From NCBI GenBank assembly GCA_963675755.2, contig CAXXMD010000003.1:1152001-1216000 (forward strand): a stretch of DNA of 64,000 nucleotides. The letters are read 5' to 3'. A program made the translations under genes and the position numbers. The notes beneath the pieces were generated by a model. It had not been told where the DNA came from and searched no databases. It saw only the letters and a program-made list of their open reading frames with translations. Shown here piece after piece: positions 5,658 through 8,539 of this stretch. This DNA is from a bacterium. Lineage in GTDB: Bacteria > Zhuqueibacterota > Zhuqueibacteria > Residuimicrobiales > Krinioviventaceae. The number at the start of each line of letters is the position of its first letter. Positions within the stretch are counted from its first letter, which is position 1.

Positions 5658-6017
5658 TTAATCCTGTTTGTTTTCTTTTAACTCGCTAATACGCTTGTTA
5701 ATACTTTTTAGCGTTTTTTCAAGAGAGGCTGTCTGGCTTGTCAACATCTCTAGCTCAATATCAGGATCCATTTTCTCTGGTGCGGCCTGAGCATTCTCAA
5801 CCTCGGGATTAAAGCCGGTTCGCTGCCAGCCGGTTTGACCGGTTGCAAAATACATGTTTCGATGACCCCGGCCACCTCCACGTTTCATGCCCATACCTCC
5901 GCCTCGTCTTCCACCGGAATTCGAATAACCGGGAGAAGCAAATCCGGAACAATAGCCGGCCCCTCTGCCAGTCATCGGTCCCATTCCGACAGGTCCTGTT
6001 TTATCACCAAAAGGCAT
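5658..6017 (-). CDS. DUF5320-family Gly/Arg-rich protein
   Basis: MPFGDKTGPVGMGPMTGRGAGYCSG signature, C-terminal coiled coil, strong AAGGAGG RBS. Confidence 0.85.
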   Translation of the reverse strand: MPFGDKTGPVGMGPMTGRGAGYCSGFASPGYSNSGGRRGGGMGMKRGGGRGHRNMYFATGQTGWQRTGFNPEVENAQAAPEKMDPDIELEMLTSQTASLEKTLKSINKRISELKENKQD

Positions 6018-6051
6018 ATCATTAACCTCCTTTCAATTATTGGGTTTTATT

Positions 6052-6070
6052 AAAAATGGTAATCATTATC
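6052..6070. promoter_or_regulatory. Fur box upstream of the DUF5320 gene
   Basis: AAAAATGGTAATCATTATC matches 16/19 of the Fur consensus GATAATGATAATCATTATC. Confidence 0.7.
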
Positions 6071-6089
6071 AATAATGGTAAAAATTTTT

Positions 6090-6551
6090 TTATGCTGCTC
6101 CTTTACAATCCTTACAAATCCCATAAAAATGTATGATATGATGAAATATATCAAAGTTGTGCTTTTGCGACAAGCTCTGCTCTGTTTTGTCCATCAACTC
6201 TTGTTCTTCATGAACAAAGTCACTATAATCAATAATATTTCTGCATTTTACACAAACAAGATGATGATGATGTTCTTTTTTATTCGGATTGCTTATCAAT
6301 TCGTAACGGGCTTTACCATCACCAAAATCAAAGCGTTGAACAACTCCTATCTGGCAAAACAAATCCAAAGTACGGTATACCGTGGTTAATCCGATAGATG
6401 GATTCATGTTTACCGCTTTTAGATAGATATCTTCAGCGCTTAAATGTTCCATTGTCTGTCTCAATATATCCATAATCACTTTACGGGGCATTGTTGAACG
6501 AAAGCCAAAATCATCTAATCTTTTTTGCCACAAGGGTCCTCTATTTCTCAT
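6090..6551 (-). CDS. Fur-family transcriptional repressor
   Basis: HLSAEDIY, IGLTTVYRTL, HHHHLVCVKC, FYGICKDC. Confidence 0.95.
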   Translation of the reverse strand: MRNRGPLWQKRLDDFGFRSTMPRKVIMDILRQTMEHLSAEDIYLKAVNMNPSIGLTTVYRTLDLFCQIGVVQRFDFGDGKARYELISNPNKKEHHHHLVCVKCRNIIDYSDFVHEEQELMDKTEQSLSQKHNFDIFHHIIHFYGICKDCKGAA

Positions 6552-6579
6552 TAAATCACCTTAAAGTTTAAACCTTATT

Positions 6580-6598
6580 GAAAATGATTTTCATTATC
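6580..6598. promoter_or_regulatory. Fur box (autoregulatory) adjacent to the -10 of the fur promoter
   Basis: GAAAATGATTTTCATTATC matches 16/19 of consensus; perfect 7-1-7 palindrome TGAAAAT-G-ATTTTCA at 6579-6593. Confidence 0.75.
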
Positions 6599-6627
6599 AA
6601 TATAACACATTTTTCATCACCTGTCAA
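6599..6627 (-). promoter_or_regulatory. Sigma70 promoter of the Fur-family gene
   Basis: TTGACA-17 nt-TATATT on the minus strand. Confidence 0.7.
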
Positions 6628-6656
6628 CTAAAAAACTAATTTTCACGCATTTTTAC

Positions 6657-6685
6657 TTGCTTTGTAATCACTTCTTTTTTATCAT
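6657..6685 (+). promoter_or_regulatory. Sigma70 promoter of prxU
   Basis: TTGCTT-17 nt-TATCAT. Confidence 0.55.
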
Positions 6686-6707
6686 TAAATAGACAAAAAT
6701 ATCTCTT

Positions 6708-6725
6708 TGTATTGGATGTGGTAAT
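6708..6725 (+). repeat. Left arm of a perfect 18-bp inverted repeat flanking prxU
   Basis: TGTATTGGATGTGGTAAT is the exact reverse complement of 7463-7480. Confidence 0.95.
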
Positions 6726-6743
6726 CTTGAAAGGAGCTATACA

Positions 6744-7457
6744 ATGTCAGAAAAACAAGCAGGCTGTGCCAGACCAACCGGCGCATCTGTTGGCGAGCCG
6801 GCAAGTGAAACGAAAACAGAAACAATAATTGAAAAGGAGTCAACAATGGTTACTGCCAAAGTGGGCGCCAAAGCCCCCGATTTTGAGGCACCAGCATATT
6901 ATCGCGGCGAGTTTACGACTGTAAAATTGTCCGATTTTTTAGGTAAATGGGTAATGGTTTGTTTTTACCCGGGTGATTTCACCTTTGTTTGAGCGACTGA
7001 AGTGTCAGCGGTCGCTGCCAATTATGATAAATTACAAGAATTAGGTGTTGAAGTTATATCAGTAAGTGTAGACAGCCAGTTTGTACATAAAGTTTGGAAT
7101 GATCAAGAACTTTCAAAAATGGCTGGAAGAGATGTACCCTTTCATATGGCCTCTGATGGCCCCGGCAACGTAGGAACCGTTTATGGTGTCTACGATCCGG
7201 TAGCTGGTGTTGAATTACGGGGACGTTTCATTATTGATCCGGATGGTGTGATTCAGGCAATGGAAGTACTTACACCACCGGTTGGCCGACAACTTTCTGA
7301 AACTATCAGACAAATTCAAGCTTATCAACATGTTCGTTCAACCAAGGGTGCTGAAGTTTGCCCGGCAGGTTGGACCCCAGGTAAAAAAGTTTTAAAACCA
7401 GGTCCAGCTTTGGTAGGCAATGTCTGGAAAGAATGGAATCCTTTAAAAGACCATTAA
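6744..7457 (+). CDS. prxU: Selenocysteine-containing peroxiredoxin (AhpC/Prx1 family), 237 aa with TGA 6990-6992 read as Sec
   Basis: ORFs 6744-6992 and 7002-7457 are in one frame. FYPGDFTFV-(TGA)-ATE aligns with the peroxidatic FYPxDFTFVCPTE motif. Resolving EVCPAGW is present, there is an N-terminal GCARPTG extension, and a SECIS lies downstream. Confidence 0.92.
6993..7020 (+). promoter_or_regulatory. Bacterial SECIS element
   Basis: Hairpin UG(U)CAGC-GGUC-GCUG(C)CA at 7003-7020. The GGUC apical loop begins 17 nt after the UGA and resembles the E. coli fdhF SECIS tip GCA-GGUC-UGC. Confidence 0.8.
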
Positions 7458-7462
7458 AATTC

Positions 7463-7480
7463 ATTACCACATCCAATACA
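7463..7480 (-). repeat. Right arm of the 18-bp inverted repeat flanking prxU
   Basis: ATTACCACATCCAATACA, separated from the prxU stop codon by 5 nt. Confidence 0.95.
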
Positions 7481-7840
7481 CCTAATATCGAGTAAATGAA
7501 GCATTTTTCAAAAATCGTTCACATTTATATTTTGCTTATCATACAGCAACGCGCGCACCCCTCACAATGAACGTAAATAATAATTCTTTCTGCTCAATCA
7601 AACATGGCGCGACTTTTTTCATTTACTCCTACAGTTAAAATGCCCTGTAACCAGATAAAATTATCGCGATTAAAGACGCTCAAGGGGAATTCCCATAAAA
7701 AGATAGTATAAAACTGGAATCCTCATACTGAACTGTTTCTCCTGGCGAACCAATAATTGCTTCAACCGACGATTTGTACTACTGCTTTTGAAAAAGGTCA
7801 ACAGAAATATTAACAATCATTATTCTCAAGTGGGGCAATT

Positions 7841-8539
7841 TTGAACAAACATCCATCACTCAAAAACATTGAAATATCTCAAGACATTATTGAGCGCTGG
7901 CAAAGCATTGTTGACATACTTGCTGAAATTCTAGACATCCCCGCTGCACTGGTTATGAGAATTGTTGGAAAAGACCTTGAAGTATTCATGTCCAGCAAGA
8001 GTAAAAACAATCCTTACGAACCGGGTGAAAGAGAACCGCTTGAAGGCTCAGGACTGTATTGCGAAACCGTGATCAAAAGCAGAAACAAACTGCTTATCCC
8101 CAACGCTCTTTTAGATGAAAAGTGGAAAAACAATCCGGATATTAAACACAACATGATCTCCTACCTTGGCTTTCCTGTGCGCTGGCCCAATGGTATGATT
8201 TTCGGAACACTGTGCGTTTTGGATAATAAAGCCAACTCGTATTCTGATACATTTGAACAATTGATGATCAAGTTCAGAGAAATACTTGAAAACAATCTAT
8301 TACTACTATTCATGAACCACGAATTGGGTGTAAAAAACAAAAACCTTTCTGATTACCTGGCCGAAATTAAATCACTTAGAGAAATTACCCCCATCTGCTC
8401 ATACTGCAAAAAAATCAAAGACGATAAAGGCTATTGGGAAACCGTAGAAGCCTATTTTTCCAAACATACCGACACTAAATTCAGCCATGGATTATGCCCC
8501 GAATGTCTTGAAAAACATTACAAAGATATAATCAAATAA
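7841..8539 (+). CDS. GAF-domain signalling protein with C-terminal Cys-rich (PICSYCKKI...SHGLCPEC) domain
   Basis: GAF motifs SYLGFPVRWPNGMIFGTLCVLD; two CxxC pairs at the C-terminus. Confidence 0.8.
   Translation: MNKHPSLKNIEISQDIIERWQSIVDILAEILDIPAALVMRIVGKDLEVFMSSKSKNNPYEPGEREPLEGSGLYCETVIKSRNKLLIPNALLDEKWKNNPDIKHNMISYLGFPVRWPNGMIFGTLCVLDNKANSYSDTFEQLMIKFREILENNLLLLFMNHELGVKNKNLSDYLAEIKSLREITPICSYCKKIKDDKGYWETVEAYFSKHTDTKFSHGLCPECLEKHYKDIIK

Follow-up and report, generated by a model that had tools for sequence, protein, structure and literature searches.

The window, by which we mean the whole 64,000-nt stretch of DNA analysed here, carries on its forward strand the gene prxU (6744-7457), an open reading frame with one TGA that encodes a selenocysteine peroxiredoxin of 237 amino acids and matches the AhpC-TSA, 1-cysPrx_C and NF040737 profiles. 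The protein belongs to the PrxU equivalog family, scoring 396.3 bits against the cut-off of 270 for NCBIfam NF040737 (peroxi_PrxU), with residues 6-233 aligned to profile positions 2-231 of 233, and the conserved N-terminal extension of PrxU (15 residues) is kept in all 23 of 23 loci. This fit of the 237-aa form identifies the ribosome-binding site that the preliminary description had listed first, the Shine-Dalgarno sequence AAAGGAG (6730-6736, forward strand), as that of the true start at 6744; it matches an AAAGGAG/GGAGG block present in every row of alignment A1, described below. From the reading frame and the comparison of orthologues, the in-frame TGA (6990-6992, forward strand) is read as selenocysteine at the peroxidatic position, in the context FTFV-U-ATE. 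TGA occupies this codon in 94 of 96 parsed orthologues, the remaining two being one with Cys and one without a match to the motif. Directly 3' of the UGA lies a probable SECIS hairpin, GCGAC...GUCGC (6993-7015, forward strand), marked by near-invariant nucleotides in the 24-row alignment and predicted by RNAalifold, which pairs 347-350 with 355-358; an in-frame UGA followed by such a predicted hairpin is the arrangement characteristic of PrxU. Its sequence look-alikes show a known family and nothing further.

What sets the gene apart is the inverted repeat that brackets it. The 5' arm, TGTATTGGATGTGGTAAT (6708-6725, forward strand), falls in the putative 5' UTR and the 3' arm, ATTACCACATCCAATACA (7463-7480, forward strand), in the putative 3' UTR, both being delimited by repeat finding, copy count, position in orthologues and covariation. 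A repeat search of the window finds the arms complementary at 18 of 18 nucleotides and 737 nt apart. Four nucleotides separate the end of the 5' arm (6725) from AAAGGAG, with the ATG following at 6744, and five (7458-7462) separate the TAA stop codon (7455-7457) from the 3' arm, so that the perfect 18-bp repeat and its post-stop gap are just as the preliminary description had them.

The same description held that the repeat exceeds chance, and this is borne out both by shuffling and by the recurrence of the arrangement, with other arm sequences, in 24 of 90 orthologous loci. With up to three mismatches allowed, the 18-mer occurs in the window only as the two arms of prxU, while shuffled versions of the window hold a mean of 0.11 matches and reach at least two in 1 of 100 shuffles. 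A search for further copies, proposed earlier and now run across the whole 6.48-Mb genome, returned two exact copies, the arms themselves, and three unrelated matches with two mismatches. Perfect inverted repeats of at least 17 nt with a spacer of 100-3000 nt number only 15 genome-wide, and the prxU repeat is the sole one of these that tightly encloses an ORF of more than 100 aa, in a scan that imperfect helices would escape. Other candidates for the same design were set aside: L117 is an IS element, with a transposase-like ORF and 15-nt terminal repeats; L116 and L118 are small secreted-protein ORFs whose repeats are AT-rich or short; L119 is a sulfatase fragment; and L200 is an oxidoreductase ending at TGA. 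We thus find no convincing second example of the prxU design in this genome. An Rfam scan of 6300-7900 returned no relevant family, its one match being a chance snoRNA hit (E=0.95).

Promoter-like hexamers, TTGCTT-N17-TATCAT (6657-6685, forward strand), precede the 5' arm by 22 nt and may serve as a weak promoter, with 8 of 12 consensus matches; a stricter promoter scan omits them because its threshold is 9/12. The promoter predicted in the preliminary description is a weak one, with the hexamers found at 8/12 and the stricter scan showing no forward-strand promoter here. TTGCTT-type -35 hexamers appear again in the orthologues L008 and L043, and in most loci promoter-like hexamers precede the 5' arm by 0-31 nt, as consensus matches in AT-rich DNA. 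At the other end, the earlier claim that no intrinsic terminator follows the gene holds in a consensus scan: the 3' arm of the window is followed by CCTAATAT, with no U-run, and the combination of a G+C-rich stem and a direct U-run is absent. L010, L054 and L056 have canonical terminators past their 3' arms, as do, by eye, L020, L021 and L023; in the sense orientation, a terminator always comes after the 3' arm where there is one. A crude scan of 110 nt, which misses imperfect stems, found no canonical terminator in 17 of 24 arm-positive loci, and by the same crude scan the association between arms and the lack of a terminator is not significant (7/24 versus 11/24, Fisher p=0.37). Among the sequencing runs listed for the locus, none is an RNA run. 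Given the hexamers upstream and the terminators past the 3' arm, both arms appear to lie within one monocistronic transcript.

Complementary arms in orthologous prxU loci

Arms occupy the equivalent place in 24 of 90 non-redundant, genome-derived orthologous loci. Counting back from the ATG, the 5' arm of these loci begins at 35-56 nt and ends at 19-46 nt, immediately ahead of the Shine-Dalgarno sequence; the 3' arm begins 6-22 nt past the stop. The sequences of the arms vary by lineage, among them GGATGTGG, GGATGCGG, CAGATGTGG, GGGTGTAG, CGGGTATGG and TACGCGG cores with differing flanks, and the length and boundaries of the complementary stretch drift between species (8-19 nt), the inner core being most conserved and the outer ends most variable. 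In the arm group (n=23), whose membership was set after inspection of the data, the mean z was -4.3 against dinucleotide shuffles of the 3' UTR. Of 62 loci scored in an out-of-sample metagenome set, 4 show a strong helix at the predicted place, with lengths of 17-19 nt and z values of -6 to -9; these four are all among the nine loci of at least 75% identity, and they include a new arm sequence that contains TTGAATGCGG.

The distribution of the helix is patchy. One PrxU clade of 37 rows (SH-aLRT 94), with records labelled Calditrichota, KSB1, Fidelibacterota and Cloacimonadota, holds 21 of the 24 arm-positive loci. A clear helix is absent from 66 of the 90 loci, among them close relatives that branch within that clade (L011-L014, L016, L017, L047-L049 and L052), and the helix must therefore be dispensable. 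The neighbours of prxU are common only to a same-genus genome; since neighbourhoods are not conserved, the conserved unit is the arms together with the gene.

Evidence that the arms pair comes from the way they change. In alignment A1 (24 rows, with 18 arm pairs counted, and with six slid partners and 500 shuffles as controls), 71.0% of cells are paired, compared with 35.5-39.1% in the six slid controls, and changes on both sides are seen in 16 of the 18 pairs. Doubly changed cells number 66, against 32.6 +/- 4.7 after shuffling, with none of the 500 shuffles as high; the covariation score is 0.334, against 0.200 +/- 0.018, again with none of 500 reaching the observed value. Persistence of 5'/3' complementarity with compensatory changes was the test that the preliminary description had proposed for an RNA helix, and because such changes do persist in orthologues, a helix closing the mRNA is the supported one of its alternatives. 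These natural compensatory changes are pairing evidence of the sort that a 5' UTR-3' UTR interaction would be expected to leave in an alignment.

Structure prediction is in keeping with this, with some qualifications. Given the 18 in-register rows, with L045, L051, L056, L020, L021 and L023 left out, RNAalifold predicted the closing helix de novo; run on all 24 rows, six of them out of register, it did not return the helix. The helix is part of the minimum-energy fold of the full message, both for the window and for 26 of 26 arm-positive loci. However, 5'/3' UTR pairing of at least 10 pairs also appears in the minimum-energy folds of 6 of 20 arm-negative loci, and minimum-energy pairing alone is for that reason not specific. 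Neither of two comparisons of pair type separates selection on RNA from selection on DNA: G.U pairs and A.C oppositions are equally common (17 and 15 in the 18 in-register rows), and across 22 loci the duplex energy of the sense strand is no different from that of the antisense strand (Wilcoxon p=0.53).

A candidate closing helix and competing explanations

Overall, we believe it probable that a selected, long-range RNA helix formed by the 5' UTR and the 3' UTR closes the prxU mRNA, a reading supported by covariation between the arms. The stretch of 5' UTR just upstream of the ribosome-binding site would pair with the 3' UTR just past the stop, folding the whole monocistronic message of about 0.74 kb into one large stem-loop, or 'panhandle', and the helix would presumably act after transcription. 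Among its possible roles we prefer end protection, which takes somewhat less than half of the weight that we give to the helix as a whole, and alongside it we favour a part in marking transcripts as complete. For example, consider a message whose transcription has run to its end. The duplex would bury the 5'-proximal leader and the 3' UTR, and as complete transcripts alone carry the 3' arm, these alone would be shielded from 5'-end-dependent or endonucleolytic attack on the leader and from 3' exonucleases. The Shine-Dalgarno sequence and the stop codon would be left free by the helix and held near each other.

A bolder version of this scheme, which we regard as a long shot, would have the prxU mRNA act as a bacterial 'closed-loop' message that can sense when it is complete and is stabilised and re-used only if selenocysteine decoding succeeds. 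Transcripts that stop short of the 3' arm would be unable to form the duplex. When selenium is scarce, premature stopping at the UGA would leave the downstream RNA open to polarity and decay; once formed, the helix would protect the message and hold terminating ribosomes next to the ribosome-binding site; where a lineage has a U-run, it might itself be the terminator stem.

The most serious competitor, though an unlikely one, accepts the same helix and gives it a regulatory or processing role, either as an RNase III site or as a means of coupling to ribosomes that pass the UGA. As an RNase III site, the double strand would trim or destabilise the message, in the manner of icaR or of rRNA processing stalks, and about two helical turns of duplex would be expected of such a stem; the uninterrupted duplexes of 11-19 bp, helix lengths of 18 bp in the window and 8-19 bp elsewhere, and the single RNase III gene encoded in the genome may fit this. 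Under the coupling version, re-initiation or the fate of the message would be tied to ribosomes that have read past the UGA, which would terminate abutting the 3' arm and be released near the ribosome-binding site. The distances of the arms, 6-22 nt past the stop and 19-46 nt before the start, do place both codons at the base of the helix, but by the established size of the ribosome's footprint at termination, 3' arms starting at +12 to +22 lie outside it. A link to selenocysteine might also be read from L052, the single Cys-containing orthologue, which lacks a helix while one is present in its Sec-containing sister L056. A single Cys case is anecdotal, however, and most Sec-containing prxU genes of Chloroflexota, Acidobacteriota and Pseudomonadota show no helix, so that Sec decoding does not generally require it. 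Regulation of initiation finds some encouragement in L058 and L059, where the 3' UTR directly past the stop is complementary to the Shine-Dalgarno region (6-8 nt), as in icaR. Against it, the helix of the window does not reach over the Shine-Dalgarno sequence, and the pairing of that sequence with UCCUUU near the coding end, predicted in the minimum-energy fold of the window, is absent in orthologues; masking of the Shine-Dalgarno sequence was dropped as an explanation on that ground.

Less probable still is a split intrinsic terminator, with the upstream half of the stem in the 5' UTR and the downstream half and U-run in the 3' UTR, so that 3' end formation on prxU would need the 5' UTR. In about 10 arm-positive loci (L009, L010, L015, L044, L050, L053, L060, L061, L063 and L064), 4-7 T directly follow the 3' arm and an A-run precedes the 5' arm, whereas none of these rows has the reverse layout, in which a T-run would precede the 5' arm and an A-run follow the 3' arm; no conserved local partner of the 3' arm was found, and the 17 of 24 arm-positive loci without a canonical terminator in the crude scan might also be taken in its favour. 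Yet the A and U runs may merely lengthen the helix, the 3' arm of the window itself has no U-run, and the lack of terminators is not significantly associated with the arms. Canonical terminators past the 3' arm in several lineages show that the helix is unneeded for termination there, and no terminator with a loop as long as 740 nt is known to us.

Explanations at the level of DNA fare worse. The preliminary description had offered an invertible switch, in which a site-specific recombinase flips 6726-7462 between the arms and so turns prxU off, and we now give this very little credence. A whole gene is indeed flanked by inverted repeats with its putative promoter outside, and the pair-type counts are compatible with DNA-level selection. 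There is, however, no recombinase among the six neighbouring ORFs, the genome's four tyrosine and one serine recombinase matches all lie outside the window, and no conserved neighbour gene accompanies the arms and gene in other genomes. The earlier statement that the window holds no recombinase or transposase stands for tyrosine and serine recombinases over its whole length and, for transposases, among the six neighbouring ORFs. Contigs of four runs show the reference orientation only, with no strand-changing joints, which is weak evidence because contigs drop rare variants. Also counting against inversion are the placing of terminators, which in the sense orientation always come after the 3' arm, and a complementary stretch whose length and boundaries drift by species where a recombinase site would be fixed.

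A comparably slight chance attaches to the third proposal, that prxU is carried between genomes by a non-autonomous mobile cassette of which the arms are the terminal inverted repeats. The arms and gene occupy different neighbourhoods in different genera, and the PrxU tree intermingles records of several phylum labels, as such movement would predict. But the genome holds only two arm copies, no direct repeats adjoin the arms in the printed flanks, and no transposase is adjacent among the neighbouring ORFs, so that the copies, target-site duplication and transposase of an IS or MITE are all lacking; moreover, variability within the arms is greatest at their outer ends and least in the inner core, the arms do not enclose the putative promoter, and the genuine IS of this genome (L117) looks unlike the prxU unit. 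Finally, although by a rough uniform-composition estimate the number of perfect 18-nt inverted repeats within 3 kb expected by chance is a few tenths per 6.5 Mb and the genome has nine such repeats of at least 18 nt, chance similarity or an assembly artefact is already refuted by the conservation of the arrangement across organisms, independent assemblies of many of which show the same layout with different arm sequences, and a 51-kb contig of a public run, possibly the window's own source, spans the stretch without a difference.

Regardless of the specific role of the helix, end-to-end pairing kept by compensating mutations in many distant uncultured lineages would be rare among bacterial messages. 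In the passages available of a 2021 review (PMC7821165), such 3' UTR functions, hbs included, are said not to be conserved even among close relatives. The gene-enclosing helix, by comparison, seems to accompany prxU through differing neighbourhoods, and our search of the literature on prxU and UTR pairing, with subscription journals and supplements outside its reach, found no description of a prxU end-to-end helix. We therefore see in prxU a natural, covariation-backed case for testing end-to-end pairing as a stability device, and also bacterial 'closed-loop' translation and long-range terminator formation. The helix would also lie on the message of a selenoprotein, in which early termination at the UGA makes it a genuine question whether a transcript is complete.

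Likeness to known systems

Short inverted repeats flank a DNA segment in the invertible switches fimS and hin and, as terminal inverted repeats, in IS elements and MITEs; prxU is unlike all of these, as no nearby recombinase or transposase, multiple copies, target-site duplication or alternative orientation was found. There is also a likeness to the RNase III processing stalks of 16S and 23S rRNA, in which the 5' flank pairs with the 3' flank and the helix so formed likewise closes off a stretch of hundreds to thousands of nucleotides. These rRNA helices are longer and surround stable RNAs, whereas the prxU helix would enclose a translated message. The eukaryotic closed-loop mRNA, joined through cap-eIF4E-eIF4G-PABP-poly(A) (as outlined in the accessible text of PMC7821165), also brings the stop region of one message beside its start region. 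That loop is mediated by proteins, while prxU would use direct RNA-RNA pairing.

Pairing that links the 5' UTR of icaR to its 3' UTR was reportedly described by Ruiz de los Mozos and colleagues in 2013. In this Staphylococcus aureus gene the 3' UTR pairs with its own 5' UTR in a duplex that is a potential RNase III substrate, and a UCCCC anti-Shine-Dalgarno motif deep in a long 3' UTR masks the ribosome-binding site (PMC7821165, from the parts available). By contrast, the helix of the window stops 4 nt short of the Shine-Dalgarno sequence, its 3' arm lies only 5 nt past the stop, and anti-Shine-Dalgarno pairing of the icaR type is not seen in the window, being predicted only in L058 and L059. 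What prxU would share with both icaR and hbs is complementary segments of 5' UTR and 3' UTR in one gene, seen in the window (18/18 bp), in the 24 of 90 genome-derived loci and in the 4 of 62 from metagenomes.

Among the nearest known systems is the Bacillus subtilis hbs message, in which a 14-bp pairing between 5' and 3' UTRs protects the mRNA (Braun, Durand & Condon 2017, PMC5737220). There too, as far as the available text of that study goes, the pairing is long-range and within one monocistronic bacterial mRNA, and it does not primarily mask the Shine-Dalgarno sequence; it modulates the access of nucleases to the leader (PMC5737220). The case of prxU differs in being known from sequence alone, in the tight bracketing of the coding region on both sides, and in the compensatory changes that accompany the arms across several phylum labels.

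The inverted repeat and the gene it encloses

The preliminary description had placed a perfect 18-nt inverted repeat around a selenoprotein gene, and an inverted-repeat search found it again: the 5' arm, TGTATTGGATGTGGTAAT, lies at 6708-6725 and its exact reverse complement, the 3' arm, at 7463-7480, and 737 nt separate the two. A single gene, prxU, is enclosed, running from an ATG at 6744, preceded by the Shine-Dalgarno sequence AAAGGAG (6730-6736), through an in-frame TGA (6990-6992) to a TAA stop at 7455-7457. Its product is a PrxU selenoperoxiredoxin (NCBIfam NF040737, 396 bits against a cut-off of 270), and because this match spans residues 6-233, the real protein is the long 237-aa form and what had been called the first ribosome-binding site serves the true start. 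Just ahead of the peroxiredoxin domain there is a second strong Shine-Dalgarno sequence, AAAAGGAG (6832-6839), followed by an in-frame ATG at 6846. The intervening stretch (6744-6848) encodes the conserved PrxU N-terminal extension, then a variable E/K/P-rich linker; the extension occurs in 23 of 23 first-round orthologues, falls inside the NCBIfam PrxU model and has a conserved Cys. Orthologues, too, show in-frame ATGs after purine-rich runs, so that both a long and a short PrxU product are conceivable.

Within the window, the arm sequence has no further copy even when 3 mismatches are allowed. The genome-wide search for other copies, proposed at the outset, returned only the two exact copies in 6.48 Mb, and three unrelated matches with 2 mismatches. 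Only 15 perfect inverted repeats of at least 17 nt with spacers of 100-3000 nt occur in this genome, and that of prxU is the sole perfect repeat of at least 17 nt that tightly encloses an ORF of more than 100 aa. Outside the window, a genome-wide scan for gene-enclosing inverted repeats found an insertion sequence, L117 (G000 contig C2:2285778-2287390), with a transposase-like ORF of ~500 aa bounded by perfect terminal inverted repeats of 15 nt. At G000 contig C3:741024-743783 the two halves of a perfect 55-nt inverted repeat lie 2650 nt apart, and a G+C-rich motif, GAGGTGCCGGGCAA / CCCTGAGTGTTCGCC, recurs as short inverted pairs at several loci outside the window; these may represent a repeat family or mobile element.

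Complementary arms in orthologous loci

We collected 103 prxU loci from 40 related genomes, the window's own genome and a species-representative genome collection; 96 were parsed and, after 6 duplicates were dropped, 90 were compared. Complementarity of the 5' UTR to the 3' UTR at the window's position is present in 24 of the 90, with the 5' arm close upstream of the Shine-Dalgarno sequence and starting 35-56 nt ahead of the ATG, and the 3' arm starting 6-22 nt past the stop. The arm cores vary by lineage (GGATGTGG, GGATGCGG, CAGATGTGG, GGGTGTAG, GGGTGTATCC, CGGGTATGG, TACGCGG), each with different flanks, yet both arms of any one locus match each other. In an alignment of 24 loci that took in 60 nt before the ATG and 45 nt after the stop, scoring of the window's 18 helix pairs gave 71.0% paired cells, versus 35.5-39.1% in six slid registers, and changes on both sides in 16 of the 18 pairs. 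Doubly changed cells numbered 66 (32.6 +/- 4.7 in shuffles) and the covariation score was 0.334 (0.200 +/- 0.018 in shuffles), neither value being reached in any of 500 shuffles; these figures are conservative, because 6 rows are out of register. The compensatory change in orthologues that had been named as a test is thus borne out.

Compared with dinucleotide-shuffled 3' UTRs, the 23 arm-positive loci scored, a group picked post hoc from data already inspected, gave a mean z of -4.3, and the other 66 loci a mean z of -0.26 (p=0.076; outliers L085 and L094). Because of that choice, an out-of-sample test was run on 80 further prxU loci from a metagenome scan, of which 68 were parsed and 62, with enough flank, were scored. 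A strong helix (z -6 to -9) was found at the predicted position in four: L124 (19 nt), L127 (18 nt), L126 (17 nt) and the imperfect L121. All four fall within the nine loci whose PrxU protein is at least 75% identical to that of the window, and L126 and L127 have a further new arm sequence, containing TTGAATGCGG. Overall, we conclude from these sequence comparisons that the prxU 5'/3' complementarity is real and conserved.

A probable long-range RNA helix and its possible roles

We read the prxU message as closed by a long-range helix between its 5' and 3' UTRs, the one proposal of the preliminary description that conserved position and compensatory changes support. The arms are fixed relative to translation signals, not to any DNA landmark, and the matching stretch (8-19 nt) drifts in length and boundaries between species, unlike a fixed protein-recognition site. 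In most loci the 5' arm is preceded, at 0-31 nt, by promoter-like hexamers, which are weak consensus matches; the window's pair (TTGCTT-N17-TATCAT, 6657-6685) is absent from a stricter promoter scan. Terminators of the ordinary hairpin-plus-U kind lie downstream of the 3' arm in L010, L054 and L056 and, on visual inspection, in L020, L021 and L023, which would put that arm within a monocistronic 3' UTR. Minimum-energy folding of the full-length message gives the helix for the window and for 26 of 26 arm-positive loci, although this criterion is not specific, since 6 of 20 arm-negative loci also form at least 10 UTR-UTR pairs. RNAalifold recovered the helix de novo from the 18 in-register rows but not from all 24. 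G.U pairs occur as often as A.C oppositions (17 versus 15), and no difference was seen between sense and antisense duplex energies (p=0.53), so these measures do not single out sense RNA as the selected molecule. A search for RNA runs containing the locus had no hit. Taken together, an RNA helix is favoured.

By analogy with hbs, the most likely role of such a helix would be to protect the leader and 3' end of the prxU message, in which case only complete transcripts, those containing the 3' arm, would be stabilised. Genes for RNase III, an RNase E/G-type enzyme and RNase Y all occur in the genome, so candidate nucleases are present. The helix may instead be an RNase III processing or decay site, as in icaR. 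It may also couple the message to Sec read-through: start and stop both sit at its base, the Shine-Dalgarno sequence of L058 and L059 is complementary to the 3' UTR directly after the stop, and L052, the sole Cys-for-Sec orthologue at the peroxidatic position among 96, lacks a 5'/3' helix whereas its Sec-containing sister L056 (both Cloacimonadales records) has one of 11 nt, a single pair and a lead only. A split intrinsic terminator, as may be suggested by about 10 orthologues with a U-run after the 3' arm and an A-run before the 5' arm, sits less well with the window, whose 3' arm has no U-run, and the absence of a canonical terminator is not significantly associated with arms (p=0.37). In L063 and L064, the 3' arm can also fold into a local 6-bp hairpin with a T-run behind it, so that the local segment and the 5' arm compete for the same 3' sequence, a possible alternative-structure switch.

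A DNA-level element is argued against, both as an invertible switch (no recombinase among the six ORFs neighbouring prxU; four tyrosine and one serine recombinase matches in the whole genome, none in the window's range on contig C3; no strand-changing joints in the contigs of four public runs, weak evidence as contigs only) and as a mobile cassette (two arm copies only, no direct repeats visible beside them in the flanks inspected, and outer ends that are the most variable part of the arms). RecA-dependent gene conversion is thought to need longer matches than 8-19 nt, which makes concerted evolution of the two DNA copies an unlikely source of the covariation.

Distribution and relation to known 5'/3'-UTR interactions

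A quick maximum-likelihood tree built from 90 PrxU proteins places 21 of the 24 arm-positive loci in a single 37-row clade (SH-aLRT 94), with record labels including Calditrichota, KSB1, Fidelibacterota and Cloacimonadota; the other three, L020, L021 and L023, lie in a second. Because arm-negative loci (L011-L014, L016, L017, L047-L049, L052, L058, L059) nest among the positives, the helix has repeatedly been lost or replaced. No clear helix was seen in the prxU genes of Chloroflexota, Acidobacteriota and Pseudomonadota among the genome and metagenome loci scored. The window's Fur-family, DUF5320 and GAF neighbours recur in a same-genus genome only, and neighbourhoods are otherwise not conserved; as judged from sequence, the conserved unit is 5' arm, gene and 3' arm. 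Two boxes of 28 nt, AT-rich and in part palindromic, are 86% alike (TTATTRAAAATGRTWWTCATTATCAATA) and resemble Fur/PerR operators. The box at 6047-6074 is upstream of the DUF5320 gene, which is on the minus strand (5658-6017). That at 6575-6602 is upstream of the Fur-family gene, likewise on the minus strand (6090-6551), and overlaps the -10 hexamer predicted for that gene; it lies ~55 nt ahead of the promoter-like hexamers of prxU. Short contigs of other organisms in public runs match 6573-6604, as expected for a widespread operator motif.

Intramolecular pairing of 5' and 3' UTRs is documented for the bacterial mRNAs hbs, icaR and RNAIII/hld (PMC7821165), that of B. subtilis hbs involving 14 bp (PMC5737220), and a 2025 preprint concerns long-range anti-Shine-Dalgarno pairing (PMC12697547). 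In the openly accessible papers searched on prxU and UTR pairing, we found no description of an end-to-end prxU helix. It is best filed as a form of intramolecular 5'/3'-UTR interaction. An icaR-like arrangement, unlike the window's, is seen in L058 and L059, where the first 8-12 nt after the stop are complementary to the gene's own Shine-Dalgarno region (6-8 nt) and a canonical terminator follows. The prxU helix differs from hbs, icaR and RNAIII/hld in that it tightly brackets the coding region on both sides, leaves the Shine-Dalgarno sequence uncovered, and has been kept by compensatory evolution in many lineages.
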